Source: Haliotis cracherodii | Lineage: Eukaryota | Assembly: GCF_022045235.1 (NCBI RefSeq) | Contig: NW_027266290.1 | Location: 1,860,001-1,924,000 of the forward strand | Direction of reading: 5' to 3' | Length of the DNA: 64,000 nt | In this document: positions 3,390 to 57,900 of the stretch, piece after piece | Numbering within the stretch: the stretch's first letter is position 1 | How the letters are laid out: each line of letters begins with the position of its first letter | The notes under the pieces: generated by a model | The model's database searches: none | Told to the model about the DNA's origin: nothing | What the model saw: only the letters and a program-made list of their open reading frames with translations | Made by a program: the position numbers and the translations under genes

Positions 3390-3569
3390 TATTTCAGTTC
3401 TTTCACAGTATGTCCGTTAACGTTGCAGGAGAGCCCAAAGTGATGCAGGTTCTAGGCGTTTACCACATTTGTGGGATAAGACTACTCTCATTGTGCCATG
3501 GGACAGTTACTTCGTAGCATTAAACATCCATGACACAGTTCTAAAATAAAATCTACTTTCTCTAATCAC

Positions 3570-3834
3570 TTTGGTTGGTTTGCTGTTTTACGCCCCTCTC
3601 AGCAATATACCAGCTATATGACGGCGGTCTGTAAATAAACGAGGCTGGACCAGACAATCCAATGATTGACATCATGAACATCGATCGACGCGAATGGGAT
3701 CGATGACATGCATCAACCAAGTCAGCCAGCCTGACTAACCGATCCCGTGAGTCGCTTTTTACGACAAGCATAGTCGCCTTTAACGGGAAGCATGGGTTGC
3801 TGAAGACCTATTCTACACCGGATCTTGACGGGTC
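3570..3834 (-). mobile_element. SINE-like family A copy
   Basis: TSD TCTCTAATCAC at 3559-3569 and 3835-3845. Confidence 0.9.
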
Positions 3835-11999: not shown

Positions 12000-13040
12000 C
12001 TTAACGTCCAGCGATACGCCCAACATGGCCCCTACCTCCAGGCACGCCAAGACATGCACACAGGAGTGGGACAGTATAATAATTGTTGAATTTACAATCC
12101 CGATTGATTACTTTCATTGGTCACTCTAGAAATAAATTATTTTTAAACAGCAACGTTAAACAACAAACAAACAAACAACGATGTTCATGCAACATTGCTA
12201 GTTTCGACAAGACAAACCAGTGACCACCCAATCCTTTTAGTCGCCTTTTACAACACGATGCATTAGATGCCGGATACCTATTCTAATCCGAAATCTTCTT
12301 GTGGGTCATGTCATTGAGCAGAACGATATAATGTCTGTGCATTATTAAAAGCGGCGTTAAACCAAACTTACTCACTCACTAACTCTGTGCATTACTGAAG
12401 TGTCATCAGGACTGAAAAAAGTGACAACAAATAGGATGAGTGGACTGAATTTGACATCGCACTCAACTTATCATGGCGACCTGTAAACAATCGAGTCTGG
12501 ACCTGGCGAACTGGAATCACTAACAACGAACCATCCAATTGGGAAAGGTAATATACTAAGTCTCCAAGTATGACCACCCGATCCTGTTCGGTTGGATCTT
12601 TTGTCAAACATGGGTCGGGTGCCTAGTGGTTAAAGCATTCGATCGTCACGCCAAAGACCCAGGTTCGATTCCCGACATGGGTACAATGTGTGAAGCCCAT
12701 TCCTGGTGTCCTCCGCCGTAATATTGCTGCAATATTGCTAAAAGCGGCGTATAACCAAACTCACTCACTTTGACAAACATAGGATATTTGGCACCTTTTC
12801 GTCCCTTCACTCCCAAATTATTCGTACTAAATAGAGGTATCTGACGTTTCCAGATAATAAAAAAAAATTAAAGCTAAGATTGAAGTTATTAATTACAAAA
12901 TGAATTTTGTCGATTTTATTTAAACGACTCTTGTAAGTCACTAAAATTAATATTATCCATTTTTTAAGTGATGGACAGAAGCTGAGGTGAGGAGAAACGC
13001 GGTTCAAGGTCGCGTTAACGATTATTAGTACACGTATATA

Positions 13041-13465
13041 CCCGATCCACCCCAGTGGGGAAGGTAATCTACCCAGTCACCGAGCCTGACCACCCGATCC
13101 ATCTTAGTGGGGAAGGTAATCTACCCAGTCACCGAGCCTGACCACACGATCCATCTCAGTGGGGAAGGTAATCTACCCAGTCACCGAGCCTGACTACCTG
13201 ATCCATCTCAGTGGGGAAGGTAATCTACCCAGTCACCAAGCCTGACCACCCGATCCATCTCCGTGGGGAAGGTGATCTACCCAGTCACCGAGCCTGACCA
13301 CCCGATCCACCCCATTGGGGAAGATAATCTACCCAGTCACCGAGCCTGACCACCCAATCCATCTCAGTGGGGAAGGTGATCTACCATGCCACTGAGCATA
13401 ACCGCCAAAGCCACCCTGTCTGGGAAGGTAATCTACCAAGCCACTGAGACAAACCAACCGATCAT
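13041..13465 (+). repeat. 52-bp minisatellite, ~8 units (duplicate copy)
   Basis: Period-52 units from 13041 to 13457. Confidence 0.93.
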
Positions 13466-16400
13466 CTTTAGTAGGATCTTGAGGTTTTACTGCAGACACT
13501 ACATTGTTTATTTATTCAAGTTTTAACAACGAAGCAGCTGCTTACGTTAAACATATTAATGCATCTGTTCTGAAAGCAAATGAAAACGGTATGTTGGGGC
13601 ACTTGGTACCGTTTATGACTGTTTGCAACTGTAGTAAATATTATGTCCTTGTCTCTAAAGACTCTCGCTTACCTAATTACGTGCTTTAATGAATGTTCTA
13701 TATACGCCATACACGGTGGATGAATGACATAAAACGGAGGAAGTGTAAACTAGGGACGAAGTTAATGTAGAACGTTTTCTACGGGATTGCCCAATCGCTA
13801 TTCTAAATGAAATATGAAGCGTCTCGAGCTTCTAACTCTCGTTGTTATTACACATTCGGGAAAGGAGGAGCAACAACATTGAATTACATACCTTAAATCG
13901 ACATGCCTTCATATTTTTCAGAGCGTTTCTTCGGTGTAATGCCACCGATTTGAATAATACAGTAAACTACGGTTATGACGAACACGCTTATAACGAACTG
14001 ACTGATATAACGAACTTACTTTTTAGTCCCGGACATTTGTTGTATATATTCTGTATATATGCTTATAACGAACTACGGTTATAACGAACTGAAATAAGTT
14101 TGAGTTCGTTATAACCGTAGTTTACTGTATTTCAGTTCTTTCACAGTATGTCCGTTAACGTTGGAGGAGGGCCCAAAGTGATGCAGGTTCCAGGCTTTTA
14201 CCACATTTGTGGGATAAGACTACTCTCATTGTGCCATGGGACAATTACTTCGTAGCATTAAACATCCATGACACAGTTTTAAAATAAAATCTACTTTCTC
14301 TAATCACTTTGGTTGGTTTGCTGTTTTACGCCCCTCTCAGCAATATTCCAGCTATATGACGGCGGTCTGTAAATAAACGAGGCTGGACCAGACAATCCAA
14401 TGATTGACATCATGAACATCGATCCACGCAATTGGGATCGATGATATGCATCAACCAAGTTAGCAAGCCTGACCACCCAATTCCGTTAGTTGTTTTTTTA
14501 CGACAAGCATAGTCGCCTTTAACGGGAAGCATGGGTTGCTGAAGACCTATTCTACACCGATCTTGACGGGTCTCTCTAATCACGGATGGTCCTTGACCAG
14601 TCGCCTAGGATACGGCAACTTGGATACCTTGTCACGTCAGAATCCGATCATATATGGTACGAATCCTAGAGTTTGCACCATACCCGTGCAAATGGATTTC
14701 CAGGAGCTGCGTCACTTGGGCTCTCTTCCCAAGTTGAGCTGACACGCCCTGATACAACTGAAAGACTGAAAGAAAGTTCACATGGTGTTGGACCCAAGTA
14801 CCTAAGGAATTCCCACAAAGTCAGCTGTCTATACGTGTCTGAAACGCCGTGATATAAAAAGGAAAGACTGAAAGTTACTCTCAACTCACTTAACTCGCAC
14901 TAAGCCACCCGCTTATACGTGTCTGACAAGCCCTGATATAACTGAAAATTTAAAAAAATTCAATCCTAAAGATGTGTTTAGAATTTTATTTTGTATCATA
15001 GCCATACAACCCTTTGCAATTCTAAAGGACACAGTAAAATAGTTAGAGTGGTATGTCTAACATAGCAACGAGTTTCTTAAGTTCAACAATTCAAGGATAA
15101 AAGATAAAAACGGTACTGCAAACACGGAAACGTCTATAGAATTCAAATGTCAAATACATTCTATATCAAATATAAGTGGCAACATATACGATACAGGCTC
15201 AAACAGTTCTGCATAAATAATTATAAACTGTAATGATATCATATACACTCAAAATATGCATATGTACAGAAACGCAAAAGAAACGTCATCATGGATAGAT
15301 ATATGAGAACCCTTATTTGTCCAAACATACTTTGAGACATTTTGAAAAGATGAAACTTGGCAAAACTGATCATCAAGGTTGAAATTAAAGTGTCAAATGT
15401 ACTTAAAGTGAAACACAACACTAGTCTCTGAGAAAATGGCATCACAAGTCAGTATCTCGTGTGTCCGCCATGTGCATTGATGACTGCCGTGCAAAATCGA
15501 TACATTGAATGTATGAGTCGGTTGATGAAGGCCATAGGCACTTGAGCCCAAACTCTAAGGAACGCCTGACTCAGTTCAGCTGCAGTTGTCGGCTATGTCG
15601 GACGTCATTCGGCCATCTTTGAATCTTGTCCCACAGGTGCCCAATGGGATTTAAATCGGGACTGAGGGCAGGCCTCTGCATGGTTCTGATGTCATTCTGC
15701 TGGAGGAAGTCTCTTGTTGCTCTGGCAACGCGACGTGCCAAATGAGGTATGGCGTGTGGTCTCACGACTTGATCAATGTACTGAGCTGTTGTGACACCAT
15801 CGCCTCTCCAAGGAATGACGTTCTGGAAGACCACAGGGCCGACCCTCTGTGCAAGACCAATTCCACCCCACACCATGATGCTCGGACCACCCCATGAGTC
15901 TCTCTCAATAACAGAAGCATCCGAATAACATTCCCCATGACGTCAACCACTTCTCCTGGTCTTCATAACAATAACTTTCGTTTGAATGTTGTAAACCAGG
16001 TAAAGTTTGTCTCTCGATGCAAACAGGCCTCTTGTCTTATCATCAAAGACTATTCTATGAACTCAAAACACTCAAATATTATGCAAACGTATGTGCCCAA
16101 ATACAAACAGCAATACATATAATCAAGATCCAAAATTCAAAAGACAATAATTACACAAATACTCTTCCAAAACTTACTCGTCTATAGAAAAGAAAATACT
16201 CATACATCAAAACGTTTGTTTCTCCGTTTGCTGTTTAACGCTCCACTAAGCATCTCAGTAATCGACTATGGACCAGACAACCTAGTTGGCTCCATGAACA
16301 TCGATCTACGCAATTGGGACACGATCACATGCATTAACCAAGTCAGTGCGCCTCACCACCCTATTCCGTTAGTCACCTCTTACGACAAGTATGGGTTGCT

Positions 16401-18168
16401 GAAGGTCATTTCTAACCCAGATCTTCATCAGGTTATATGTCATAACGATGTATGTTATCTGATAAATGCAGCGGTAGAGTCTGATGTGAAATTCTTCCTT
16501 ACGGGCTCTAACGACCAATCAGACTAATTCCATTTGTCAAGCTGATTGTGGGTATCGAATGAACATAATATACCACACTGTTAATATGATCTACGTGTGT
16601 GGACTTCTTTAATGCGTTGTATCAAACACTTAAATAGAGGACTACGATTTGTTAAATGCTTCCTAGACACGTAAAATGTATATACAACCTTGTGTGTAAA
16701 TATTAAGATAATTGTGCTCCAGTGCAACGTTTCCGTTTGTGGAAGGGGAGACTATGATATTGTTTCATTGACAACACAAATCGGTCACCTGACGAGGTTT
16801 TGTCTGTTATCACTATTGAATGAGACAAATGGACAGGACATACTATAAACATTATGAAGAGGCATAAAACATTCAGTACACTAACACTGAAATATTATTA
16901 GTTAACAGTATAAAACATCAACATCAGAGAACAACAGATTCCAAAGGCGAAACAGCAGTGCAAATTATGTGAATGGATCACTGAAAATAAGTGAAAACAG
17001 CAGGTCTCGCGGAAATGCAAAGCATGCCCTGCTCTACCGGTAGCACCCACCACTCACACAATTTGCATAAAAAATAAATGCTGCAACATGATGTTATACT
17101 ATGACAGCAGTTGAATGAATAACTGGGATATGAAGGTTAGAAATTTGATACATAAAAGTGGAATAGATATGTATGGTTAGAGCAACAGATCCCAACAATA
17201 CCCAGTGTCATTTGTTAAGTCTTTTAAACAAGGATAAACGATTAATATTCCAACGAAATATCCACATCTTTATCTTCATCTACTTTGAGTTTGATTGTTT
17301 AATATTCTGTATAATTTGTTTCTGGATGCTAATCCTTGAAAAGTTCATTGACGTTTTCGATGTCCAATACACTGTTTGTATGTAAAAACTGGTATATATA
17401 AAATTTTCCCCTAAAGAGAAGAATAATGAATTTGTGACCAATGTTATGTGTGAACTTTCACTTGTTTTATCAGTAGCTTTGAAATCTAAGATTTATTATT
17501 TTCCAAGAAATTCGCGTGTCATCTCACATACAAGTTCAAGTTGCAACAGAGAAACTTTTGCTTTGTATCTTTGAAAACACTAAAAGCATGCTGCTTGTAA
17601 ATGCCAACATGTCTTAACCACTTAAAATCATAGGGATCTTAAAATCATAATTCCTGTCTGAAATGTCATTGCATTCATTTTTAATCATCTAAATTCAAAA
17701 TGTCCTCTTGCCATGCTCTGACTAGAAACACACACAGAAGACAGCGTTAAACCCAACTCACTCACTGAGTCACGACACACAAGTGCTACGTGATTGAGCA
17801 CATAAACCATATAAATTGGATTAAATACCATTTTCAACTTTTGTTGACGGGCGACTGAAAGAATAGTATAAATTCAAAACCTAACTGAACTGAAATGGAA
17901 TACGGTCACTTTTACGATTGACACTGTACTTGTAACCATGATCCAGTGACTGGCAAAACCGAATGTCACAGGGATCAAGATGAATGAAATATCTACCAAA
18001 TAACATCTGATTGTTAACTTAATGGACGAAGGGTAGGGCATTATTCGAAATTTGTATTTCCTTAAAAGAGTCTATGAATTTTGTCAGTTTTACGGGGCTT
18101 GTTTGGAGTAATTTAGATTAATTTACAGTTTACAGAATTAATTAGAGCGTTTACAGTATCAGAATTCG

Positions 18169-19419
18169 TCAGTTGCACTGGTACCTGTCAGCAGAACTTT
18201 CTGATATATTGTCCAACACATTCGGTACCAATGACAATGTACCATTGGGCACACAACCTCCTCCAAACCCGCCGCATTTGATATGAATAACAGCCCCCTC
18301 AGCACTCCTTGACAAAGTCTGTATGGCTGATTTGTAGCCTATCAGTTTCCATTGTTGCTCGGGTGAAACAATCCATCCTGTTCCTCGCAGATCCATGGTG
18401 AATTCTCCTTTAGCCCCACAAGATCTCACATTGAAATCTTCATGTTCAGCATAACAATCTGTTGCATAGCCATACCTCGGAGGAGTTTGTGAAATGTTTG
18501 CATACGTGGTGTCGTCAACAATCACATGCATTGTGACTGGATGAACTCTTATTTTCGAGTACCATACTTCTCCATCGCGCCCTTCACAGGTGGGATACAG
18601 ACTTGTTTCTCCTTGGCAAACTTGGTTACTTTTATTAGGAAAAATACCATAATTTTTATATGTGAGTGTAAGGTACTCCTTTGGGTTCCCGCTACTCATA
18701 TTGTGGCAGTAGACGCGAGTTCTGTAGAAGTCGAAGTTAGGCAACCTAATCCAGTATTCCCCATCTCCACTGGTCGGCCCACACCGCTTCACCTCACGAC
18801 ATGAGGATGGTACGGCTAAACGGCAATCTGTGAATGACCAATTACCACTCAGTCCACATGATGCACTGGCTTCCGGGTAGAAATCTGATTCACACACATA
18901 CTTGACAGTAGTTCCTATAGGAAGTTCACGAGCAGAAACCGTGGTGTTCAAGACGGCATTGGGAATGGCATCGAGATGAGACGTTAAACAACCAGACACC
19001 TCACAAACAGGTTCTCCTGCTGGAATGCAAATGGTATTGAGAGGGCACACATGGTTGGTACACATGGCAGCAAGTCGCTGTGGCCAGTGTTGAATGTCAG
19101 AGAAGAGAAAGCTTGATATACTTTCCATGTTTGCGTCTGTGCTGTCAGATGACTTATAGTTCAGATCACACTGATTTTGTCCCTCATTATAGTTGAATGA
19201 CTCACAATACTTTTTCCCAAGACAGTAGCGTGCACAGACCATCAGTCCACTGGCGTTAGTGGACAGGATTTGAGCATTTGCCATTTTAACTCCTCTTTTC
19301 ACAGAGGGTACATTCTCAGTGCACATTTTCTCTGCAGCTACTGTAAGGTCCAAGAAGTTAAGCCTGTGCAATACAACAAGGCAAACTGCCCAGACATAAT
19401 TGCCCGTTTGATTCCTCAT
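18169..19419 (-). CDS. Secreted PAN/Apple + EGF-like + Sushi/CCP + GON domain protein (416 aa from the ATG at 19419; ORF is open to 19491), single coding exon
   Basis: Signal-like N-terminus MRNQTGNYVWAVCLVVLHRLNFLDLTVAA. PAN pattern CARYCLGKKYCESFNY..QCDLN. Small EGF-like CTNHVCPLNTICIP..VC. Sushi C..IPNA..GTTVKYVCESDF..SCGLSGNWS..C. C-terminal ~200 aa has ADAMTS9/20/GON-1 GON hallmarks: PSSCREVK, DGEY, VYCHNM..PKEYLTL, YSKIRV, YGYATDCY, GEFTMDLRGTG, CGGFGGGCVP. Confidence 0.88.
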   Translation of the reverse strand: MRNQTGNYVWAVCLVVLHRLNFLDLTVAAEKMCTENVPSVKRGVKMANAQILSTNASGLMVCARYCLGKKYCESFNYNEGQNQCDLNYKSSDSTDANMESISSFLFSDIQHWPQRLAAMCTNHVCPLNTICIPAGEPVCEVSGCLTSHLDAIPNAVLNTTVSARELPIGTTVKYVCESDFYPEASASCGLSGNWSFTDCRLAVPSSCREVKRCGPTSGDGEYWIRLPNFDFYRTRVYCHNMSSGNPKEYLTLTYKNYGIFPNKSNQVCQGETSLYPTCEGRDGEVWYSKIRVHPVTMHVIVDDTTYANISQTPPRYGYATDCYAEHEDFNVRSCGAKGEFTMDLRGTGWIVSPEQQWKLIGYKSAIQTLSRSAEGAVIHIKCGGFGGGCVPNGTLSLVPNVLDNISESSADRYQCN

Positions 19420-22281: not shown

Positions 22282-23654
22282 TCATAAGAGAAAGTTGCTT
22301 AAACCATAAAACGCATACGGTTCGGTATGACTAGACTGTTAAAAGTAACAACAAATGAATATGACTGAGATATAACCGAGAAATATCTTTACTCATGGCA
22401 TAAAAGCAATATTGTGTTCATGTAGCCATGGTGCATTCCAAACACATTTCTGCAATTCTTCACGGCAGAGGTAATTCAAAATAAACATGTATGATTTTAG
22501 TTTCCGCAAATAGCAGTAAATACAATAGCGTGTAATTGGATTTTCTGTCTGGTCCATTGCTTGATTCTCTGGGGGTTTTTAAAGACAACCGTCGCATGGC
22601 AACATACAAAGATAAATGTTCATGCAAATTGTGTGAGTGGCAAGTGTTACCGGTACGGCAGGACATGTTTACCCTTTTCGCTGATTTTCAATGATCTATT
22701 CATATAATTTTCACAGCTGTTTTGCTGTTACTCCCAATGGAATCTGTATTGGCGGATAATTGAGACTGGTTGTTCTCTGGTGTTGACGTTTATAACTTTA
22801 AAAAAATGGTCTGTTTTCTGCTGCAATACTGAATTTTAAGGGTCGTGTCTATAAGATGTTACCACATTTAAAGACTCTAATAATGTGTAATGGTATGAAA
22901 TAGGTTTTAAACATACCAGATGTAAACATGCTTTGTATTTGTGTCTTTGTGTGTTTTAACTCAACACGTTAAGGACATGTAACACATGTCAGTGGCTCAA
23001 TATGAACATTCTTTGAACATAACATGTTCATGAAAAGTGAGGAATATAGTTGTTTGTGTCATTCTTTAGTAACCCCCTACCGCTCGCAAGTAAATACGAG
23101 GTACGTCTACATATATCTACTGCCGCAACAATCGTTATATCAAGAGGCTAGAAGAGCTAGAAGAGAAATGTTCATAGTTGTGCGATGTCCAAGCGAAACA
23201 CAAGTTCTTGATTATTCACTTTGCTTTGATAAATACAGTCGAGCAAGGATTGTGGAATGTACTTATTGAACGGACATTTTAAAGCTTCAATAACGTAATT
23301 CCACTGAGCTGAGATAATCGAAACAGGGTATTCTCTGTTATTTATTTGTAAGTGAATCGGGAAAGGCAGTTGCACACTTGTAATTGTGATCTTGAAGAAC
23401 ATTGTGAAACGTGATATTCTTATGGTGATATCTGGTATTAAATTCAAAGAAGACAGCTTTCTCAACATTGCTGACACATGTTGCGATGTTCAAGAACTTG
23501 GATTGAGTTTGGATTGAGCCCCCAAGAAGTGTCCTCAAACTCTGCTTGAGCATTCGTCCTCCTGCAACACCTGGATGACCTGACAAGGCAGCTACAATGG
23601 TCCCACCTGTAGAAGATGTTTCAAGCAACACATAGTCAGAGTCATGTTTCAGAC

Positions 23655-24000
23655 TCCGTGGTCTAGTGGTAGAGCGTCCGCCCGGAGAGCGGAAGGTCCA
23701 GGGTTCGATCCCGGGCCGCGTCATACAAAAAGACGTTAAAAGATTGTACTTGTTGTTACCCTGTCTGGCGATCGGCATTAAGGGGCTAAAACAAGGACTG
23801 GTCGGCTCGGAGTCAGTATACTGTGTCTGAGTGGGGTATTCATGTTAAACTGCGGCATGGTATCTCAGTGGGCTAGCACTATAAATCGGCATCAGTCCGG
23901 ACTAGTACAAGCAGCCACACAAACACATACACGTGCATGCACGTCGCTATATAAGTGCAATAATCTTGGACGCGACGTTAAACCCAATTTCACCTCACCC
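23655..24000 (+). mobile_element. tRNA-derived SINE, family C (body resembles molluscan MetaSINEs)
   Basis: A/B boxes, TSD CATGTTTCAGAC (23643-23654 / 24001-24012), GCGACGTTAAAC + (TCACC)n tail. Superfamily assignment is from recalled consensus, not a search. Confidence 0.85.
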
Positions 24001-28299: not shown

Positions 28300-29600
28300 G
28301 TAGACTTTAGACCATTGTAGGTTTAAGGGCAAAACATACGTCCTTGGCTTTACCGATCTTGACGATGCATTGATCTATTCTTGGTATTGGATAAGAGTCA
28401 ATTTTGGAAACAGCGTTCACACGTTTTATATTTGTACAACATTTGTAACTACCATCAGGTTTCGGCACTATGACTTGGTTCAATAATGTCATTGTCCAGC
28501 ATGTATTGAATCTCCTTCTTCAAAGCTTCAAGCTTAATTGGATTCATTCGGTAGGGATGTTGTTTCACGGGCAGAGCGTCACCTGCATCTACATCATGGC
28601 ACGATCCGTGAAGATCCGGGGTAGAATAGGTCTTCAGCAACCCATGCTTCCCGTAAAAGGCGACTATGCTTGTCGTAACAGGCGACTAACGGGATCGGGT
28701 GGTCAGGCTCGCTGACTTGGTTGGTGCATGTCATCGATCCCAATTGCGTGGATCGATGCTCATGATATTAATCACTGGATTGTCTGGTCCGGACTCGATT
28801 ATTTACAGACCGCCGTCGTATAGCTGGAATATTGTTGAGTGCGCCGTTAAACAAGAAACCAAACCAAACCAAACATCATGACACACTCAATCTGTATGGC
28901 CAGGTACATCCGTGAACAAGTAGGCAAACTCTTGAATTAACTCTAACCCTAACACTCTGACATTTGAGAATTTTGCTCAGATGAAAAATGACTTAACTTA
29001 GCATCCAAATATGCTAAAACTTCAGACTTGTGTAGCTTAGGGCTAGCATAGTCAGCTCTGCCATCAAACTTTTCGAAGGCTGAATCTGATACAATATTTC
29101 CAGGAGAAACGGTGGCAACACATGTTTCTAAACATATTGACATGACAAAGCTGTGTCTTTTTACGACGGCCTGGGGTTTGTACAACATAGACAGTGTCAC
29201 TGACTTTTCTATCAATAACATATGGACCATGGTACCTAGATTGCCTGTAATGGTTGACCAGGGATTGGCAAAAACATTAAACCTTTATCGCCGCAAATTA
29301 GGCCCCAAAAAGGAAGGGAATTCAAACCCAAATGATCTGCCAAAGGAGTTTCATGTGCCAAGCTCAAAACATGTGTTTGATGTGAATTTGGAAGGACAAT
29401 CTTATGAAAAATCATCCATTCATTATCTGCAGGAACATCTAGCGGCCTCCATTTCCTCATCAAAACTCTATCCTTGAAATAATAGCAAACTGGAACATTT
29501 CTTCTTTCCCCTGTAACGACCCAGAACTGGTTCCTCATCAGCCAAATTGTCAGAAATTTGAGCACTTTCCTTCCTGTTTCAAGTCTTAGCAAAAGACATA
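28300..29600 (-). mobile_element. Internally deleted Ty3/Gypsy relic with integrase upstream of RT (Gmr1-like order)
   Basis: On the minus strand, 5' to 3': VLMRKWRP..LAHETPLADHLG (IN zinc-binding), PGQPLQA / LCHVNM (IN C-terminus), then CHDVDAGDALPVKQHPYRMNP and VPKPDGSY..VNAVSKIDSYPIPRID (RT). Confidence 0.8.
28603..28872 (+). mobile_element. SINE-like family A copy inserted in a Gypsy relic
   Basis: TSD ACATCATG(G/A)CAC at 28591-28602 and 28873-28884; interrupts the RT reading frame. Confidence 0.9.
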
Positions 29601-34506: not shown

Positions 34507-35064
34507 GGTTTGTCTACATGCAACCGTCACATGGCTGTAGTACTGCAGTGCTGCGTCAAGCAATAAATACTTAATTTGTTTATGCAAATTGTATAAATGG
34601 CGGGTGCTACCGTAGGACAGGACATGCTTACCCTTTTCGCGAACACCTGGTGTCATTTTCAGTGGTCAATTCATATACTTGCCATAGCTACTTTGTCCTT
34701 TACGCCAAATGGCATCGGCGGATAATCTTGACTGGTTATTCTCTTGCATAGACAATGTAACTATTTGAAATGTTGACATCATCCTTCAATATAATCATCA
34801 ATCATATCAGTCAATCTACACTTTTATGACGTGGAGTGGCTTACTGGTGGGGCGAATATGCTCACCTTTTCGCAAACACCTGGTGGCATCACTATTTGAT
34901 AGTGATTCATAACCACATGCTCATGATATAGTCGAAATCGAACAATCGACTGTGCTTTTGGCTGCGATTTTTTATGAATATGGAAAAGGTTTTGTAGCTT
35001 TTAATAAAGTAATTAATACTATCTACGCTGCATTGTGCTGTCATTAAACAGCTCACACTATTAA

Positions 35065-35333
35065 GACCCGTGAAGATCCGGGGTAGAATAGGTCTTCAAC
35101 AACCCATGCTTGCCGTAAAAGGCGACTATGCTTGTCGTAAAAGGCGACTAACGGGATCGGATGGTCAGGCTCGCTGACTTGGTTGATGCGCGGTCATCGA
35201 TCCCAATTGCGTGGATCGATGTTCATGATATCAATCACTGGATTGTCTGGTCCAGACTCGATTATTTACAGACCGCTGTCATATAGCTGAATATTGCTGG
35301 AGTGCGGCGTTAAACAACAAATCAACCAACCAA
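35065..35333 (+). mobile_element. SINE-like family A (no tRNA head), full-length copy; ~20 copies or fragments in the window
   Basis: 12-bp TSD TCACACTATTAA (35053-35064 / 35334-35345); 3' end GCGGCGTTAAAC + (CAAA/CCAA)n. Other copies: 3570-3834(-), ~14308-14572(-), 28603-28872, ~37893-38156(-), ~47175-47418(-), ~50102-50330, 52471-53190, ~55384-55533, ~55778-56003, ~62755-62995(-). Confidence 0.92.
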
Positions 35334-35920
35334 TCACACTATTAAACATGTCTGCCTGAATGCATTTGCAAGCTCTTTATCAATCACGAGTTTTATCAAA
35401 ACGTTTACAGTTGTCTTCAGAAAACACCACTGTTTATGACCAACATGTTTTACATTGCTGCGAATCATCCGTATATGTTTATACAGTCGAACATCGTTGT
35501 GTCGAATTCCGGTATTACAAAAACTCGGTTGTGTCGAACTGATTTTCCGTTCCTTCGATAGTTATGATTTGATCTGCGGTACATCGAATCGGATGTGTGG
35601 AATGTTCGGTTATTTTATACAACATTTCCCTGATATGTTTAAGTGGAAATGTTGTTATTGTTTTATTCTAGTATTAAAAGCTAACGTAATATTTTTTGCT
35701 GGTTAACTTAAATTGTTTTCAACTGTAATCTATTGTACAATATCGTTCATTTACGTTGTGAATTGATCCCAAGCGGTCTTCCTGGTGTAAGAGGCAATTT
35801 ATTGGATCGGGAAGTCAGGGTAGGGGATTAATTGTGTGTAACAGAACCCCGAGGAAGATCGTTGCTTTTAATATTAATCACTGGTTTGTCTCATCCTGGC
35901 TCGATCTCTTACAGAACGCG

Positions 35921-36488: not shown

Positions 36489-38650
36489 ATGTCGGTCGTA
36501 AAGATCCCGGACGCTGGCGGAGACAACATCACTCTCCTGGAGGTGGAGGATCATCTGTACCCCAATTCTCCCATTGATTCCCCCGCTGACGTCATCAAAG
36601 GCATCCGCGACCTCCCCATCAGAGAGGATGACGTCTTTGTCTGCGCATATCCTAAATGTGGTGAGCAGTAGAGAAGTAACTTCTATTTTTCCTTTGCTAA
36701 GATTTCTTTAAGGTGCAGAATATTGTACTAGTACTTCAACTATTTTCTTCTCCGATAGGAGCAGCCAAACATTTTTGTGTGTGGATATTTCTGTGTTGAG
36801 AACATCCAGTAAATCCAATGAACATTTCTTTGTATGTGTAAAACCTGGAGGCTTTAGTAACGTTATGATGTGACGTACAATTATTTATAGCCATTTCACT
36901 AAACGTAACAAACAGAAACAAATTTTGGGAAACGACCATTTGATATTCTGAGCGTGGAGGCCTGAGGTTGTATTAATAAACATAAATTGTCCCTGAAAAT
37001 TCTTGAAAAAAATAAGTACGCTTCAAATAATTGAAAAACAAATAAATTGCAAGCCACAAAAAAATCATTGTTGCAAGGCGTTTTTTCTAAAATAAAAATT
37101 CAGGCTCATAGTTTTAAATTAGAAAATATCTGGTTTTTGTAGCTGGAGCTGAAAAAAAATCTTACCTCGACACAACCCCTGCTTCAGATTGCCTGATTAT
37201 TCAGATTATTTGATCACATTGTATTTTTGTATATATGTATGCTATTATGTTGCTCATATACCACCGGTCGGCGGTTTGAGTTAATAAAGAACTTGAACTT
37301 GAGCCTACCCCGCCTCGCTTTGAACTGATCTCTCTCTGTTGTGATATTCCAGGCACTCACTGGGTGTGGGAAATGGCCCGCCTCCTTCTGTCGAGCGACA
37401 CAGAGACTGTTATAGAGAAGGATGAATTGATGTTAGAGTTCATCGGAAATGACGTCTTAGAGAAGTTCCCGTCCCCGCGAATTTTAAACACGCATTGCTT
37501 TGTTGAGCAGCTGCCACGTGGTGTGTTTGAGAAGAAGTGTAAAATAATCTACATTCTTCGAAACCCCAAGGACATGGCAGTGTCGTTGTTCCACCACCAC
37601 AAGAAACTGAAATGCTATGAATATGATGGGAAATTTGAAAATCATGTTTCATTACTGCTGGATGGGAAAGGTTAGAGCTATTTAGAGTGAGTGAGTGGGT
37701 GAATGTTGATTTATGTCGTAAAAAGCTCATTTCCAGATAGGCAAACTACTGACTGAGAGTACTGAGATATTTTATCCTTGAACGCAGGTTGTTAAGATTA
37801 ATCTTAACTAAGATCCTTCGAAGATCTAGACCTCGGTCACCATAACACACTGTCAAGCCATACTATGTAACATTAATACGACTGTTTCCTCGTTTGTTTA
37901 TTTGCTGTTCAACGCCGCACTCAGCAATTTTCCAGCTATATGACGGCGATCTGTAACTAATTGATTCTGGACCAGACAATCCAGTGATTGACATCATGAG
38001 CATCGATCCACACAATTGGATACGATGACATGCATCAACCAAGTCAGCGAGCCTGACCACCCGATCCCGTTAGTCGCCTCTGACGACAAGCATAGTCGCC
38101 TTTTACGGTAAGCATAGGTTGCCGAAGACCTATTCTACCCCGGATCTTCACGGGTCTAGTCACGTTTAATGAAAGCAGCAGGAAGGAATTACGACTGGTG
38201 AAAAACCACAATGCTGGGTTGATATAGTTGTTGAGAACATGCAAATGTATCACCTAAGCGAATTTGAGTAAGCGAATGGGTCCAGTGTGGTTCTCAAAAT
38301 AGAATCGAGATAACATACAACAGATTATAAAAACTAGGTTGCACAAACCTCTTATATAACACTCTCCACAATTCAGTTGACTTCGGGTCGTTTTTCACAT
38401 ACCTGAAGGACTGGGCTGCCATTGGGACAACCCATCCCGACTTGCCGACCTTGACCTTGGTGTATGAAGATCTAAAAGAGGTAACAGTTAACTGCACGTG
38501 GCCACGCGCTCTATTTGTATAGCATAGTGCAAAGTCCTTTGGGGCTTATGTGGTGTATGGGCAATGCATTGCGTCTTTTCACATGAAACATCAAGTGAAA
38601 TTCCCAGCGTTTATGTTTTCGCAACACTGATGAGAGCGAGACAGTACAAA

Positions 38651-42000: not shown

Positions 42001-42744
42001 AGCATATATACGACATTTACACAACAAATGGTCGGGACTGAAAAATAAGTTCGTTTTATCAGTCAGTTCGTTATATGCGTGTTCGTTATAACCGTAGTTT
42101 ACTGTACAATTAACAATGAATTACTCTGCCATATAACAGTACAACCATTGCTTCCATGGGCAGATGTCAGGAAGCTCGTGACTCCTCGGGTGGGCACAAA
42201 CTTTCTGCAGATGGCCTTGACTGGTGTCAACTGCCGTATGTGCATTGTGATCATACGACTGTTTTACGTTGATCCATACAACGAATTCATTAATGTGCTT
42301 TTGTGTTTCTTTTGTGTGGGGGGAGTATATGAACCTTGTTACCATTCGTCATTTTCGTGGTCGCTTATTGTTGGACTGTATTATCACACATTATTGCTAT
42401 ACAGATTAACATTCTGAGTACATAATAGTATAGACCGGTGAAGATCCGGGTTAGAATTGGTCTTCAGCAACCCATGCTTGTAATAAGGGGCGACTAACGG
42501 GATGCAATATGTTGTATCATAGTATTTCTTTATTTTGCAGCGAGAAATCAAGATGCAATCTGATAATTGCCTAAATATGTACAAACATATATTAATTCAA
42601 TGAGATTCTGTTTTTTTCCGTCTTTCAGGTGAAGTTGGCGACTGGAAGAATTATTTCACAGTGGCCAAGAACGAGGTATTTGACAGAGCATACAAGAAGA
42701 ACATGGCTGATTGTGACATAAACTTTAGATACACGCTACAGTAA
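36489..42744 (+). CDS. Cytosolic sulfotransferase (SULT1-like fold), paralogue 1, 290 aa; exons 36489-36660, 37353-37670, 38377-38480, 39570-39732, 42629-42744
   Basis: GT-AG introns with phases 1,1,0,1 join into an open 873-nt CDS. PAPS 5'-PSB YPKCGTHW, PRILNTH (catalytic His), 3'-[35 protein letters not shown]. Confidence 0.95.
38652..39205 (+). repeat. Local duplication in SULT intron 3: (GA)n + ~155 bp, twice
   Basis: 38652-38845 versus 38979-39205; each starts with a GA microsatellite followed by ATGGCAACGTTTTATTGCC. Confidence 0.9.
39891..40037 (+). repeat. ~46-47-bp tandem repeat x3
   Basis: TAACGCTAAGATCCTGTCGG(A/G)AACTCGG..CAAAGCAGC. Confidence 0.9.
40090..40980 (+). mobile_element. 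Tc1 relic related to 25580-26092, interrupted by a family B SINE
   Basis: [20 protein letters not shown].. and [23 protein letters not shown]; the SINE at ~40293-40460 is flanked by ATCTGGAT. Confidence 0.75.
41710..41790 (-). promoter_or_regulatory. Heat-shock element + TATA box, antisense within SULT intron 4
   Basis: TTCtaGAAcaTTCtaGA at ~41773-41789, and TATATAAAGGGG on the minus strand ~55 bp downstream. Confidence 0.4.
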
Positions 42745-44927: not shown

Positions 44928-47900
44928 ACTCACAACCGCACCTAGACAAACATATGTGACATGATGAACTGAATGGCGGCTCGATATTCCATTGCAAGAT
45001 TTAGAAGGGAATAAAGGGAATAATGATAATACGTACCATGGTAGGACGCGGTTGTCTACTATTCAGATGAAAAAGCTTATACTTAAAAAAATCGTGCTGA
45101 AGATGTAATATGGAACGGATGTTAATAAATACTCAACCCGACGATAACAGAATAAGGGTTGTTGTCATTTCAGTTTTCAACAACAATGTTTCTCTGAGTA
45201 AAATGCAATGAACTTCCTTCACAATCAGTTTTCGTGTTATTGTTGTGGCCATTTCTCAAAGAAATATTCTCTGTTTAAATACAGTCTGGTATATGATTAC
45301 ATGACACAACCTCGGCCAAAGAATGTCAGTGATTATAATTATTTCCAATGCGTTTGGCTTGTGGGTGAGCATCAATTATTTGACCAACCAAAATGACAAA
45401 AATGTGACAAATACATTTAACTGTTATACTTTATACTAATACCAACTTATATAACTTGTATTTTTCACAGAAAAAAAACAATAATGATTTTTATGACATA
45501 CAAACATAACAAGGTTTGTTTCTAAGTTTAAGATCCTTCAAACACAGATGCGAGTCATGATTCTCTTTTTAATGTAATTAAAATCTTATTTTAATGAGAT
45601 TGCGTCTTTTTGTGTCAAACTAGACAAACAACTACAACGAGTCCACAGCCTGTACCATCCACCCAGCTTGTGTTCTTTCATTGATTTATAATGATTTATC
45701 AATATACATACGTTTCTCTATCTCTTTCCTTTCCTTTCTGTCATTTGATTTATTAACTGTAAATAAGCATACATGTAAATCTATGGGAGAAGGCGTTCTG
45801 AGTTGTGATAACTTGTGCCCAATCATTTTCATGAGAATAAAATATTTTTAAACTAAAACTAAAACTAAACTAATTGATTTATATGTTGTTTAAAGCTGCA
45901 CTCGGCAATATCCCAGCTATATGATGGCGGTCTGTATATAAATAATCGAGTCTGAACCAGACAACCCGGTGATTGACACTATGATTTACGTAAATGACAA
46001 ACGATGACATGTATCAACCAAGTCAGCGAGCCTGACCACCCGATCCCGTTAGTCGCTTCTTACGGCAAGCACGGGTTGCTGAATATTTAAGGGAAGTCTT
46101 GCTGTATAAAACTGATACCATTCTTTATGTAAGAAACAAACAAATCTGGTGGAGACTGACTTGGAAGTGAATAATATATAAATAGCAAACATTAACTACG
46201 TGTGTGACAAGTTCGGGGTCGACATTTCAGTGGAGGAGATAGTCCCTTAGGTCTATCAATTTCTGCCTATCTGAAGAAAAAATAATAACATTAACACTGT
46301 ATCGAACAATGAACGAATGGGCATGTCAGTTTTGTTTGCCAGTTATGACAACTATTCGGTATTTAAAATTGAAACCATCAGGAGATGTCTACATACCGTC
46401 TTTAGTTGTGCTGCGAAACATACCTTTCGACCTTCAGTAACAATGGTATGACGTAACAATAGTTGTGACGTTGTTGTTGAACAGTGACATGAAGCGAAGC
46501 TGCTGCTTTTAATAGATCAAACGCGGACGTCAGAGGAGACGACTAGCAACCCTGTCCGTTGCTAGGTCTGTTTGAAATGTCAAGGTCAAAATGTGAACTC
46601 TGTTCTTTCTGGGTCCCGTTCCACGCTCCTACCCAGAATTCCATGCGGCCACCCTAGAAGTGAAATGCTAAGACATCACTGCACCAGAGTGTGGTCCCCG
46701 TTCCACAAAGCGGTCGTAGCGGTAAGAACTCCCATACTTCATTTTCACTATGGTAGCCCTTAGATCGCTTTGTGGATCTGGACCCATGCATAATATACGT
46801 TGCCATTAACTTGGAAAGCTTAACAATGAAACCGCTTTATACCTGATAATCAGGCATGAGGTTTTTGGAGAATCTGTTGTGTGGAACCTGGACAAATAAT
46901 AATTGATGTAACTGGAAAAAACATAGGAATATATAAAATGGAAAATGAAGTGAAGAGGAATGTCTTTATTCACAATTAGTGGACTCCAAACTGAAAACGT
47001 ATATCACCGTCGGGACCAGGTTCTCTCAAACTTTAAGGGTGTACTGAAATAATAGTGACACCAGCCTTACATCAGCGGTTCTTGCTCTGAATGGTGGTTT
47101 TGAGGCATGATTAAGCTGGTTATTAAACCGTACATGCCTGACAATATGAGTTACTGTATCAGTCTTAATGTGTTTTTGTTTGTTTGTTTATTTGTTTGTT
47201 GTTTAACGCCGCACTCAGCAATATTTCATCTATATGACGGCTTCAGTGATTGACATCACGAGCATCGGTCCACGCAGTTGGGATACGATGACATGTTTCA
47301 ACCAAGTCAGCGAGCCTGACCACCCGATCCCGTTAGTCGCCTCTTACGACAAGCATAGTCGCCTTTTACGGCAAGCATGGGTTGCTGAAGAGCTATTCTT
47401 CCCCGGATCTTCACGGGTAGTCTAGATATGTATTTTTTTGCGACCCCGATAATAAAGAAATGTCATTATCCATATCAGTCCCCGGGCCTGATAAGCCATC
47501 CCAAACGGCAAGCCTGATGACCCATATCAGTCCGCGGAGCTATTTATGCAACCTCATGGAAAGTTTATCAAAATAAAAGATGTCGTCATTTATTCGATGA
47601 CGTCGGCCTTTTCAACTGTTAATGGAAGACCTCGGGCTTATGCAAATGATAATGCCCTGAAAAATAGCGTTACCCTTATCTTATTGAATGGAAATACAAG
47701 CTACTCGAGGATGATATTTTACATGAGACCCTAAACCTCTTGTACACCGGTTAGTATTTAGGTCATTTATTATCAGGTCGATGCGACCTAAGTCTTGCTG
47801 CAACACTCCTGGTAAGTACACACTCCAATTACACGACCGAGGCAGGCCGCTGTGCAGGTCGCGTCGTGTGTTGACAGCACACTGTTCAGTGATATTTGAG

Positions 47901-52400: not shown

Positions 52401-54991
52401 GGGTGCATAGATCTCACCTTTTTCCAGAACAGGTTTAAAGAGGGGTCAAAGAGAGGTCCATAACTAAAGTGACCCGTGGAGATCCGGGGTAGAATAGGTA
52501 TTCACCAACCCATACTGGCTGTAAAAGGCGACTGTGCTTGTCGTAGCAGGCGACTAACAGGATCGGGTGGCCAGACTCACTGACTTGGTTGATGCATGAC
52601 ATCGTGTCCCAACAATCTCATTGTAATAGATCTTAGTTCTCGCTATCGCTAAGCAAAAAGATCTGAGGCCATCCCATTACGGGTCACGTCAGAACGACCA
52701 TTCATGCAACCATTCAGAACGTCACTTACCAGATCACGAAAGTGACAGACGGAATTTGTTTTCTAATCATGCAACCACGATAAATTTACAGAGGGTATTC
52801 CGAACGACAGTTAGGGGTTTTATGATTATATCCATTTCATCTAGGCCATCTGTTAACCATTCCAGAATGTTCTTTGTATCAGTTTTAATTTTTTTTAATC
52901 GAGAATACGTCAAAGTATGTTTCGAACCGTAGTCGCCAGTTTGAAACTAGTGTCGTAAAGCTCGAGAAAGCTGCCATCTGATTGGCTATTGTCGATTTCT
53001 TGACAGTCATGTTAAGCGGTAGCGAAAACTAAGATCTGATTTTAATGAGATTGTGTATCCCAATTGCGCGGATCGATGCTCATGATGTCAATCACTGGAT
53101 TGTCTGGTCCAGACTCGATTATTTTCCAGACCGCCGTCACATAGTTGGAATATTGCTGAGTGCGGCGTAACACAACCAACCAACCAACCAATCCTATCTT
53201 TAGCCTGGGAATCGGCCTCTTCTGATGGCTTAGCAACAATGTGCACAGGTGGGAGGTTGTTGACCAATTGAGATGATTCCTTTTTCTTCTTCTTTTATTT
53301 TGAGAGATTTTACGTTCGCTTTCCGACATGATACGTATTTCGCACACGATTCTTGAACTGGCAGCCCTTTTTTCGTTGCTGAGCTCCGTACATGAACGGA
53401 TTGTAACAAACAGTGTCCTTCACCTTGCAGTTGACTTTGGCTCTTGGTTCACGTACATGAAGAATTGGGAGAAAGAGATGAAGAACCATCCAGAGTTACC
53501 GTTCTTGACCGTCTTGTACGAGGATTTGAAAGAGGTATTAATTATCTCCGTTCTCACTTCGTCTTGTGATCAGACAGAATTATTGATGGTCTGATTTTAA
53601 CAAATTTTGAATTTGTCCTGGCATCCAATTTTCAAAAGATCTCCTGAGTCACATCAGTGCATATAGCTGGAACAACCATTTTAGTTTGGGATTGTCACAT
53701 AGAATGCATGACCATGGATGATCAAGAGCTTAATATTATATTGATGTGTCACTCTTTCCAAACAACAAAAATCTCTTTGAAACATTGGCATACGGAACCA
53801 GATAAACATATCATGGTATCAAGCGTTCGGCATCCGGTGTACCAAAAAGGTGTCGGCAACCTCTTTTCAGAACGTTTTACCTGAAACGTCTTTCCTTTCA
53901 GGACTCTTTGTCAGTGATTAGGAAGATGGCGGAGTTTCTAGGGGTTGAGAGATCGGAGGAGTTCTACGAGAAAGTGTCGGAAAGGACAAGCTTCAGTCAT
54001 ATGCAGGCCACCAAGGGGAGACTACTCAAGGAACATGGAGGAACTTCAATAGTGTACAGGAAAGGTGGAAATCAACTCCTCAAGCAAGCTTTGTGTGTGT
54101 TTGTTTGTTGTTTAATGCTGCACTCAGCAATATTCCAGCTTTCTGTGCTCTGTCTGTAAATAATCGAGTCTGGACGAGACAATCTATTGTAAATGCCATC
54201 ATGAGAATCGATCCACGTTGTTGAGATAGGTTGACATCCTAACAAACAAGTCCCAGGGCCTGACACCCGATACATTTAATTCGTTATCTTTATATATTAA
54301 AAAATAAAACATTGAGCACCAGTTAAATATGAGACAAAATATTTGAGCTCCTAAGCTTTAAAACAACACTTATCTCAAACCAAACAAGCATTGGCTGTCT
54401 GGGACCATATTCCTACCCGGAATCCCAACCAGTTTGAGGCGATGTATGTGTTGGCAAAACCAGAAAGCAACAAGAGAGCATAAGGGATCGCCCATTTAAT
54501 ATTTGCAGGTCTGAATGAATTATCTGCATTCTACATACGTTCTCTGCTTTATGTTGGAAAACACAGTAAACTACGTTTATAACGAACACGCTTATAACGA
54601 ACTTTTTTGCTGTACATATACTGTATACATGCTTATAACGAACTAGGGTTATAACGAACTAGAATAAGAGCTCCCTATGAGTTCGTTATAGCCGTAGTTT
54701 ACTGTAAGCCGTGCTTCAGTATGACGAGAAGACAGTATCACCACAAGACGAGCCTACCCCCAGTACGCATGTGGGGGAGTCATGGTTCTGTTCAATCTGT
54801 TGATAAGCGTCTATTTCTTACTTTCAGAATATATTGTTATACTATCGTGTGTCATTTATGCAGGTGAAGTGGGAGACTGGAAGAATCACTTCACTGTGGA
54901 CCAGAGTGAGATGTTTGACGAACTGTACAGGGAAGAGATGGACGGAAGCAGCTTTAACTTCAGATATTCCATAAATGACTCCGTCCCTTAG
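49474..54991 (+). CDS. Cytosolic sulfotransferase (SULT1-like fold), paralogue 2, 292 aa; exons 49474-49633, 50587-50910, 53431-53534, 53902-54064, 54864-54991
   Basis: Same intron positions and phases as paralogue 1; open 879-nt [51 protein letters not shown]. Confidence 0.95.
52613..53053. mobile_element. Mutator-like MITE nested in a family A SINE
   Basis: Same TIRs; flanks CGTGTCCCAA / TGTATCCCAA duplicate the SINE target. A partial copy in the opposite orientation lies at 10442-~10730. Confidence 0.85.
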
Positions 54992-57900
54992 GCGCTGTAC
55001 GGAGTTGTGTTTCTCAGGCGTGCCAGAATTCTATGTAAAAACATGGACTGAGTATGTATAATAGATTTCTACAAATCTTTGAGTATATAAAATTCTATCG
55101 GTAAATCAATGTTGTTTTATGCCTTAGTCAGCATCACAGAGAGAGACAGTTTATTCAGTATCCCCTCAAGCTTCAAGTCCAATTTGTGGTCATGTAATAT
55201 AATTACGATAAATCAAAGCTTTACCCCGATTCTGGTCTGTCAGCACCATCCTACCCGTGGGTTTCTACAAAGTGGAAAGCGCCTATATATGATCTGCGTT
55301 ACACGGGCTTCTGGATGAACCTGATACGCCGTGATGCAACTGAAACCCTTCTCAAGCGAGGAACCGAACTCACTCACCCATCAGACCCGTGGGGATCCGA
55401 GATAGAATAAGTCTTCACCAACCCATGCTTGGCGTAAAAGACGACTACGCTTGTCGTCAGAGGCGACTAACGGATCGGGTGGTCAGGCTCGCTGACTTGG
55501 TTGATGCAAGTCATCGATCCCAATTGCGTGGATTGTCTTCACGTCAGCACTTTGATTAAAAAAACATGAAAAGATTGGGAAAATATATGTCAACGCCCAG
55601 TTGAGGGTACACATATGCTCTGCTATTCTTGCAATCGACCAAAATCTGCAGGCAGTTTTACGAATCAGATGTCGATTTTGCATAGACTAGTTAGTCCAGC
55701 CAAAACAAAACCAAGTTGGGTAAGGGTGGAAACTAGACTTCAATAGTCAGTTAACTCTCTTGGCTTGGGAAGATGGGCCCCCGTGAAGATCACAGTTAGA
55801 ATACTTCAGCAACCCATGCTTGTCATAAAAGGTGACAAACGGGATCAGGTGATCACTCACTAACTGGGCTGTTATGATATTCCAATTGTGCAGGCCAATG
55901 CTCATGATGTCAATCATTGGATTGCCTGGTCCAGATTGGATTATTTACAGACCACGGTGAACTAACTGGAATGTTGCTGAGTGAGGCAAACAAACAAACA
56001 AAAAGATCATTGGCCATCCATGTTCAAAAAGTGTTTGAAATAATTTTAAAACCCAACAACACAGTCAGGTAGATGACCCAAAGTGTTGCCTGCCCATCTT
56101 CAAAATTAACTGCCCGCGCAGGCATTATAAATACTGAACTATCGCACAAACTAAGAGACAAATCAAGTCTTCATTCAGATGAAATAGTGGAAACAGTTAC
56201 TTGAGAATTTACAAGGAAACATAATATAAAATAAAAAACAAAAAAACAAAAACAAATAATAAAACTGAATACAAAAGTAGTCTTAAATTTTTTGTGCCAG
56301 ATAGTTGGGTAGGTGGAGGAAAATTTCATTCAGCCTGACAGCAAAGGTTCCTGCCTAGGGCAGGCGGGCAGGCGGGCAGGCAGTCATTTCGGACATGGTG
56401 TTCCCATGATCGTTGAAAGAAATGAAATAAAGCAACACTGGTAATACATGATACAGAAACAACATATACTGACTTTATTGTAAGGAAATAAATCGCTGCA
56501 AGATGACAGACTCAAAAGATCATCTACATGGTGCTGTTTGTAAAGGATAATGAAAGATCATTAAACCCTGAGATCATGTGGAAACAAATCCTGAGGTTAC
56601 ACTTCACTACCAAACTTGCAATTTATTTACCAATAACTAAATGAAAAAAAAGTTATTATTAAGAAACAACACATTTTCCTTTCATTTGAATGGTCATAAT
56701 GGGCGTCAGCTGAGTTATTATTTAAACTGAAAGGGACACAAAAAATACCAAGAACTTGTTTGTCATTTCGTTGAGTCTAACCTGAGGTTATTTTTGGCCT
56801 TGGAAGTAATTTTGCATCCAAATAGTGTAAATTGTTGAAAAACTTAAAACCATAATTTCTGCAGATTTGGAAAAAAGATAAACAAGATATTGATTTGTTG
56901 TGGCTTAAGAACTTGATTTTTTTCAATTTTGGCATGATGTATTTGTGAAGACGCAGTTGTACCGCATGACTCCCACCTTGTCTAAAGGTAGAAATACCCC
57001 CCACGTGGCAACAAGAACATTTCAACGGCGTTTCATGAATACTTCTTGGGGGTAGTTTGCTGGTCTGTATGCATTGCTGACATCAGTGTATGTTTAAATG
57101 CTACATATACATATATCTGAGTAAAAACATGGACTGAGTTTATATAATAGATTTCTACAAATCTTTGAGCATATAAAATTCTCTTGGTAAGTAAATGTTG
57201 TTTTATGCCACAGTCAGCAACAAAGAGAGAGAGAGTTTATTCAGTATCCAAGAATAAACTGTCTTCAAGGCCAAGAGTACAATTTGTTGTCATAAAACAT
57301 AATTCCATAGTGGTATGTGGAAGTATTACGTAAGTTTTAAATACAAAATATATATCAATAAATACACCTGTATATTTGGTATTATATTTCTGCTTTACAA
57401 GAATCTGGCAAATTTCTTTATATATAAATAGCAATACCTCTTACATTAACATTCTGGGATATCAGGGAGACAAATGTCTGTCGCATGGATACCGATGAAA
57501 ATAACGAGGAATTACACATTCCTGCATTTTTGCCCAATTCGCCTGCCATGGGCACTTAGTTTAGAACCCGAGATAAATCCCTGCTAACAATGAACATCAT
57601 CACACCAGAAGTGGACATGGGTCGAGCGGGACGCACCTGCGGTTATCACCTAGCAAGATATGGGAGTTTCTGTCCAATGTTGGACGTCCCATACTGGAGG
57701 TTTCTGTCAACCTATGTCCAAGAGATACTTGGCAGGAACAGTTTAACTATTAAAGGGCTGTTTTCGTCAAGACACTTCCATATATGGCCTGTGTTGATTC
57801 TGTTTTATTTCTGACCGGCCATGTGTTACAGAGTACGGTCATGTCTGAAGTCCGCAACATTCAGCGGTCAAAGTGCCCTGTAACTGAGACACGACAACCC

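Follow-up and report, generated by a model that had tools for sequence, protein, structure and literature searches.

The head of a short retroelement of Haliotis cracherodii is predicted, from base-pairing patterns, to fold as two stacked pseudoknots with a hairpin (P4) inserted in the second, and the same covarying module lies in the 5' UTRs of LINEs and in the 3' UTRs of viral contigs. It may represent an uncatalogued exonuclease-blocking RNA that has moved among animal LINEs, SINEs, unrelated RNA viruses and a large DNA virus, in which case the SINE, with neither promoter nor ribozyme, would have its 5' end carved by a host RNA decay enzyme; this account as a whole is put forward tentatively, with clearly more doubt than confidence. 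If an exonuclease block is at work, it would add a third way, besides promoters and ribozymes, of defining a retrotransposon 5' end, and would offer a new xrRNA scaffold usable to stabilise RNA. Function aside, a covarying RNA that Rfam lacks and that occurs both at the 5' ends of retrotransposons and in viral 3' UTRs merits a family entry. The SINE itself is already known, as a member of the LP-SINE class (PMC4758252). New are the fold, the viral presence and a LINE that combines an HDV-like fold with the module, all absent from Rfam 15 and from open-licence PMC/bioRxiv full text, in which no structural description of the module was found; Repbase/Dfam, Ruminski et al. 2011 and supplements may hold part of it.

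The repeat measures ~255-275 bp, has target-site duplications (TSDs) on either side and belongs almost certainly to the class described by Matetovici et al. 2016 (PMC4758252; here and below, published work is cited from the parts of each source that were at hand). That paper reports LP-SINEs of 255 bp from Haliotis, Ostrea, Saccostrea and Littorina and notes that their initial ~70 bp correspond to the 5' ends of Nimb-17_LMi, I-3_DR and RTE-9_CPB. The copies studied here resemble its Hdi_LP/Hmi_LP elements in length (~255 bp), in having variable TSDs and 3' short tandem repeats, in lacking a tRNA head and in carrying a LINE-derived head of ~70 nt, the same module being present in the published 'Nimb-17 homology' block and in LINE 5' UTRs of this genome. 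We infer identity with Hdi_LP; two SINE body motifs gave no match in part 1 of the supplementary PDF. The first-pass annotation was therefore right to propose a non-autonomous retroelement with a LINE-derived, non-tRNA, RNA-structured head, of a class already published. In the parts at hand, PMC4758252 proposes the head as a promoter, without a test and with Pr77 cited as a promoter/ribozyme precedent, calls the partner LINE unidentified, and, unlike the present analysis, gives no RNA structure, viral copies or partner LINE. Its scallop alignment contains the same module with other stem letters, in copies that start in a C run. The function of the head and the mobilising LINE were thus left open, and the fold, the viral copies and a candidate LINE now bear on both. 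The parts at hand of PMC5786205 and PMC11481361 hold nothing on the SINE head.

In the window (the whole 64-kb stretch of DNA analysed), a 15-mer of the SINE has 12 matches against 0.84 expected, and a 25-mer of its head has 7,544 exact matches in the 1.18-Gb genome, its reversed control having none. A covariance model gave 54 matches in 400 kb of sampled genome, i.e., ~1.6e5 copies if extrapolated. That this family is the most abundant, as described earlier, is not established: the window has 12 tails attached to its own body and 400 kb have 41, vs 14 and 65, respectively, for several other families pooled. Among 105 tail-bearing matches in 464 kb, 37 start at nt 1-10, and no other 10-nt bin exceeds six except nt 181-190, where 34 tail-only matches begin; these are attributed to other SINEs with a common tail. 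The tail is indeed also common to tRNA-headed SINEs, and one such element at window positions 23652-23960 (+), with a weak Rfam tRNA match, resembles by eye the published MESC type.

Several searches were made for a longer or conventional head. Rfam at E<=10 on positions 35000-35400 returned four chance snoRNA/lncRNA matches and nothing else, ARAGORN found no tRNA in the head, and 53 head copies had no common upstream sequence. The small-RNA-derived head with A/B boxes that characterises tRNA, 5S or 7SL Pol III SINEs was thus not found, in agreement with the annotation's statement that a tRNA head and A/B boxes are lacking. Because neither an Rfam head, tRNA or other, nor a common upstream sequence turned up and starts cluster at nt 1-10, nt 1 is taken as the real 5' end; a truncation hotspot of a longer tRNA-headed element is ruled out on the same grounds. 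As for individual copies (Table 1), the TSDs described at 35065, 28603 and 3834 (-) were recovered and abut the head, the second with one mismatch; none was found at 38156 (-), and the copies at 42433, 52471 and 55384 are 3'-truncated.

Table 1. SINE copies in the 64-kb window and predicted features of the copy at 35065
Feature	Position	Strand	Remarks
Full-length LP-SINE-type copy	35065..35333	+	head, body, LINE-like tail, short A/C repeats
5' target-site duplication	35053..35064	+	12 bp; second copy 35334-35345
3' target-site duplication	35334..35345	+	
Predicted pseudoknot 1	35065..35097	+	S1 = 35067-70 with 35079-82; S2 = 35072-78 with 35091-97
Predicted pseudoknot 1 loops		+	one-base loop U 35071; crossing loop 35083-90, ends AGAAUA
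Predicted stem S3	35098..35110	+	35098-101 with 35107-110; stacked on S2
Invariant hairpin P4	35112..35148	+	22-nt tandem duplicate in this copy: 35112-126, 35134-148
UAA junction and predicted 3' strand of S4	35149..35157	+	overlaps competing body helix 35153-35204
3' tail	35273..35333	+	like 3' end of this genome's EN-RT-RNaseH LINEs
Full-length copy	28603..28872	+	TSD 12 bp, 1 mismatch
Full-length copy	3570..3834	-	TSD 11 bp; duplicated at 14308-14572 within segmental duplication
Full-length copy	37892..38156	-	no TSD found
Head-only copy	42433..42505	+	single P4
Copy with internal deletion	47178..47419	-	T at position 1
3'-truncated copy	52471..52595	+	
3'-truncated copy	55384..55533	+	
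Older diverged copy	55778..55998	+	begins with C run; single P4

The fold was tested on 17 rows less than 80% similar, kept from 59 candidates after dereplication; they comprise this genome's SINE and LINE, other animal-type repeats from metagenomes, and viruses, and were aligned without structure input. The descriptor used to choose rows rewarded S1 and S2 pairing and the U, so that pairing counts for S1 and S2 lean high; S3 and S4 played no part in the choice. Paired cells amount to 89.7% in S1, 87.4% in S2 (with double changes in 7/7 pairs) and 89.7% in S3, the AGCA/TGCT hairpin (double changes in 3/4 pairs). P4 is paired in 95.3% of cells and sequence-invariant; since the search patterns fixed AGAAT and most of P4, the invariance of both is partly by construction. 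The covariation score was 0.542 vs 0.182 +/- 0.022 for shuffled alignments, none of 500 shuffles (which ignore relatedness) being as high, and slid controls reached at most 0.121. S4, which pairs the S3 loop with the strand after UAA, scored 218 against a maximum of 210 in 2000 swaps, its pairing being weak in three rows (L032, L036, L117), and S1 also passed the swap control (7/2000 swaps as good). This covariation points to selection at the RNA level.

The predicted order is S1a-U-S2a-S1b-(..AGAAU)-S2b-S3a-S4a-S3b-U-P4-UAA-S4b. It is preferred because S1-S4 find support in these tests, while two elements proposed in the first-pass annotation fail the swap test: the closing stem CCCGT/ACGGG is paired in 49% of cells with 1420/2000 swaps as good, and the GGGT-ACCC kissing loop is equalled by 960/2000 swaps. 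An intermediate model, with one pseudoknot and an internal-loop hairpin, was replaced once S3 had been tested. The covariation check on diverged copies that the annotation suggested, run with shuffle, slid and swap controls, thus bears out its GAAGATC/GGTCTTC and AGCA/TGCT helices, which covary, and its GTCGT/GCGAC hairpin, which is sequence-invariant; pseudoknots are supported as it had supposed, but with the partners swapped. Its remark that the last hairpin occurs once or twice also stands (of 49 head copies, 23 have one and 26 have two). Folding energy does not bear out 'highly foldable': z-scores of three copies are -1.95, -0.46 and -1.08, pseudoknots lying outside the model. In the SINE itself, S4 would be only 3-4 bp long and would compete with a body helix, and S3 has one mismatch in the 35065 copy, AGCA being found in most copies. 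In Rfam, neither the head nor the viral loci nor the 5' ends of the LINE have a matching family, and its hammerhead, twister, twister-sister, pistol, hatchet and hairpin ribozyme models gave no match, in line with the earlier view that the structure cannot be assigned to a known ribozyme class.

A candidate partner LINE was reached through the ORF1 that follows the module in locus L195, which has 124 scored relatives in this genome. Among 30 relatives retrieved, the module was recognised by pattern in 27 and by eye in a further 2, at 420-580 nt upstream of the ORF1 match. Full copies span 5.7-6.2 kb between TSDs and contain two ORFs and the domains EN, RT and RNase H; local alignments (no E-value) show a resemblance between their last ~50 nt and the tail of the SINE. 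The start of the LINE lies 58 nt ahead of the module and is formed by a minimal HDV-like fold (P1 of 7 bp, P2 of 7 bp, P3 of 3 bp, CC/GG for P1.1, and C in J4/2), complete in all six features in 51/60 LINE heads, where TSDs abut G1. In module-selected LINE loci, the fold or upstream part is present in 30/30, and 0/30 start at the module. The search for an autonomous LINE beginning with the same module, as proposed earlier, therefore succeeded in part: a LINE with the module and a similar tail exists, but none of the 30 module-selected copies starts at the module. The homologous LINE in L195 (one copy) has no HDV-like fold upstream, like published LINEs that begin with the module. The HDV-like fold is predicted to cut at the LINE 5' end, and a Nimb/I-type LINE protein likely copies the SINE RNA from the common tail. 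As separate observations, the ~58-nt HDV-like fold at an exact, TSD-bounded 5' end (e.g., L229:312-369, L231:365-422) has no Rfam match, and the young EN-RT-RNaseH LINE family has 607 exact module matches.

The module also occurs in viral sequences. An 18-mer from P4 matched 9 loci among 2.9 million viral contigs, of which 7 bear the rest of the module, absent from the search pattern, and two (L035, L039) match in the 18-mer only. A looser scan added L341 (model E 1.7e-8, outside the training set); the looser patterns gave 57 distinct matches, six scoring 21-25 and the others <=19, mostly chance, and two other such searches yielded no further module. Seven RNA-virus-type contigs, two of them near-identical, carry the module: two have a tombus-like RdRP_3 (L036, L038), one a toti-like RdRP_4 (L034), two a peptidase-A21 capsid (L032, L037), one an S-domain capsid (L341) and one no Pfam match (L031). 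The ORF of the last has atlas matches to RNA-virus clusters at 0.92-0.93 with low recognition, a lead only. In 7/7 the module lies on the coding strand, 4-196 nt past the final long ORF and at a distance of 0-104 nt from where the contig ends, and it is tandem in 2/7 (L031, L341; two copies each). An eighth viral module is intergenic in a 212-kb DNA-virus contig that encodes an NAD-dependent DNA ligase. In viral copies the fold is maintained by compensatory changes of their own. No module match was found in 50,697 phage records.

Further settings were encountered in metagenomes and prokaryote assemblies. In the metagenome repeats L091, L098, L112, L055 and L108 the module is fused ahead of a tRNA-like head, in parallel with published scallop MESC SINEs, and it has been added at the extreme 5' end of SINEs several times, including ahead of tRNA heads (cf. 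PMC4758252). Prokaryote genomes gave 15 matches, 7 of them scoring as modules. One (L195) is followed by a zinc-knuckle LINE ORF1, one (L194) lies within simple repeats, two (L188, L196) are <=250 nt from contig ends, and three (L185, L189, L191) have no ORF >=170 aa nearby; because of these surroundings, bacterial occurrence was rejected in favour of host contamination or chimeric contigs as the probable source. Four of these assemblies (L188, L194, L195, L196) carry animal-type retroelement sequence. Minisatellites of 45-52 bp, made of SINE nt 1 to ~50 in up to 30 units, stand at SINE 5' ends (L389-L407, L005, L016, L267, L287).

The 5' junction was examined more closely. Position 1 is G in 7,544 of 9,992 exact SINE heads (75.5%), so that the common G start noted in the first-pass annotation applies to these but not to the remainder. 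Where a non-G copy has a TSD, its deviant base does not usually come from the target (28 examined, with 11 TSD-like matches, several of them tandem units). LINE heads keep GG in 59/61, at the HDV-like fold; the SINE start is thus less exact than the LINE start, a comparison confounded by age. SINE 5' ends lie 1-2 nt before S1 in this genome; 56 metagenome copies from other families begin 1 nt before it, with A or G immediately ahead of S1 in 45 of them. These junctions fit an exonuclease stop over two bases, and they also fit a capped start at A2, in which case the G1 of 75% of the family could be a copied cap. If G1 is instead the start, there is no cap-copy signature, because no excess G precedes it (1,746/7,544, or 23%, in the SINE; 15/59 in the LINE comparator).

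Among known RNAs, the module is analogous to xrRNA classes 1-3 and coremin, which likewise have a compact pseudoknotted fold, lie in viral 3' UTRs and place the 5' end at the base of the first helix: the module is in 3' UTR position in 7/7 RNA-virus-type contigs, and insertion 5' ends 1-2 nt before S1 serve as a proxy for RNA ends. Plant-virus xrRNA stops for Xrn1 lie at the base of P1, and in one case the xrRNA is positioned 28 nt inward from a 5' end that is made independently (PMC6299227). The stop of one xrRNA falls on two neighbouring bases (PMC12397905), and frameshift pseudoknots of the ordinary kind fail to stall Xrn1 (PMC10321173). The module nevertheless differs in topology and sequence and is found in host retroelements. 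It lacks the three-way junction with a double pseudoknot ring of classes 1 and 2, the junction-closing stem having failed, and, by eye against PMC12397905, the P1/P2 stem-loop, L2B T-loop and apical loop-3' end pairing of class 3.

HDV-like ribozymes combine a nested double pseudoknot with P3, pairing of the L3 CC with the J1/4 GG, and a G1-U pair. The module has no P3, L3 or P1.1 and no G1-U pair, its first S3 pair takes four types, and it is a separate element from the HDV-like fold; it does share a 5'-terminal position with the HDV-like ribozymes of R2, L1Tc/Pr77, RTE and Baggins (PMC6765202, PMC11331408). Similarly, the twister T-variants of Perere-3 (PMC8501958) mark a LINE 5' end, next to the TSD, with a structured RNA that is not HDV-like, but no twister core is seen in the module by eye and Rfam twister models do not match. 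A different parallel is s2m, a short structured mobile RNA in 3' UTRs with a patchy distribution among unrelated RNA viruses. The module is shared by unrelated viruses in the same patchy manner; s2m, however, is a single stem-loop with an Rfam entry, and Rfam gave no match here.

Because the module is repeatedly recruited to the extreme 5' ends of retroelements, even ahead of tRNA heads, it probably sets or protects the 5' end. That an xrRNA-like, exonuclease-blocking fold fixes and shields the 5' end of the SINE RNA is given just under an even chance; for comparison, R2 insertion increases with a stable 5' fold (PMC11331408). Starting from the observed copies, TSDs, covariation and placement in LINE 5' UTRs and viral 3' UTRs, this proposal supposes folding in the cell, nuclease resistance, read-through transcription and LINE partnership: host read-through transcripts would carry the promoter-box-free SINE; its head would block 5'-to-3' exonucleases, so that trimming of the transcripts would end, and their protection begin, at the base of the first helix; and a Nimb/I-type LINE protein would then copy the trimmed RNA from the common tail. 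Viruses would use this fold to generate or preserve a short 3' subgenomic RNA, and in this genome's LINE it would be a second shield behind the predicted HDV-like cut. The block is favoured because it fits all settings, and a promoter or a 5'-cleaving ribozyme does not: a promoter is meaningless in an RNA virus and would remove the HDV-like part of the LINE, and a 5'-cleaving ribozyme would presumably cut viral 3' UTRs and the LINE. Against it, the LINE has kept the module intact even though its HDV-like end should make it resistant to Xrn1 already; P4 is invariant and does not covary, which suggests partner recognition not needed for nuclease blocking; the purine before S1 would also be expected of a transcription start; and the predicted topology matches no xrRNA class 1-3.

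A dual element is a less likely reading that still deserves weight, in which the DNA acts as an internal promoter from the purine before S1, as in the published LP proposal, and the RNA as a host-factor- or ribosome-binding module for cap-independent translation or stability. It would be a 3' enhancer in viruses and a 5' enhancer in LINEs, and the SINE would borrow it to reach the LINE protein. A purine at +1 in 45/56 metagenome copies, a G1 that could be a copied cap, and sequence-invariant P4 and AGAAU agree with it, as does the fact that a LINE expected to make uncapped RNA retains the module after its HDV-like fold; a precedent for a dual promoter/ribozyme is Pr77 of L1Tc (PMC4758252). A promoter start at the module predicts, however, LINE copies without the HDV-like part, of which 0/30 were seen. 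Two separate functions are needed, G is not in excess before G1, the published scallop copies start in a C run (PMC4758252), and PMC12397905 describes 3' CITEs as specific to plant viruses.

It is improbable that the module is a self-cleaving ribozyme of a new class, whether cutting just 5' of S1 or at an internal site near nt 48-52. Such a ribozyme could account for a sharp 5' end and for two pseudoknots with invariant junction bases, its S3/S4/P4/UAA half follows by eye the strand order of HDV P1/P2/P4/J4-2, and UTRs of linear RNA viruses contain ribozymes (PMC13725137). The tandem heads, in which head-to-head junctions cluster at nt 46-54 (1,199 matches vs 20, 9 and 10 in three other intervals), had suggested the internal cut, but arrays of up to 30 tandem units swell this hotspot, and microhomology or a small number of dimer masters could explain it. 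A cut within a viral 3' UTR would presumably detach the genome end, and the module has neither HDV P3/L3/P1.1 nor a fixed first S3 pair. The ribozyme option raised in the first-pass annotation is weakened by the separate HDV-like fold at the LINE 5' end, the 0/30 LINE copies starting at the module, and the viral 3' UTR position; the lack of a match to any Rfam ribozyme also counts against it. It is very unlikely that LINE ORF1p/ORF2p bind the module during packaging or second-strand synthesis and that viruses carry it as a passenger acquired from host transcripts: the 5' position in LINEs and SINEs agrees with this and R2 protein binds a 5' pseudoknot (PMC6765202), but viral copies keep the fold via compensatory changes, always in the 3' UTR, and the module is common to Nimb and RTE clades with different proteins.

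Other features of the window were also recorded. Positions 1-8016 and 10824-18754 form a tandem segmental duplication (period ~10.8 kb, 96.5-97% identity), and a 52-bp minisatellite at 2353-2594 and 13067-13360 (-) includes part of the SINE body. Positions 42631-42738 (+), a short way downstream of the head-only copy at 42433, resemble a sulfotransferase last exon (PF00685, E 3e-6). Small-RNA reads on the 35065 copy number 5, 109 and 13 in three runs, with no pile-up of starts at the head; such data are uninformative for a 270-nt RNA. In these three runs of one study, antisense reads of ~31 nt pile on the SINE body at 35238-35268 (-), and 63 molecules, piRNA-like in size, start at 35268 in one run.
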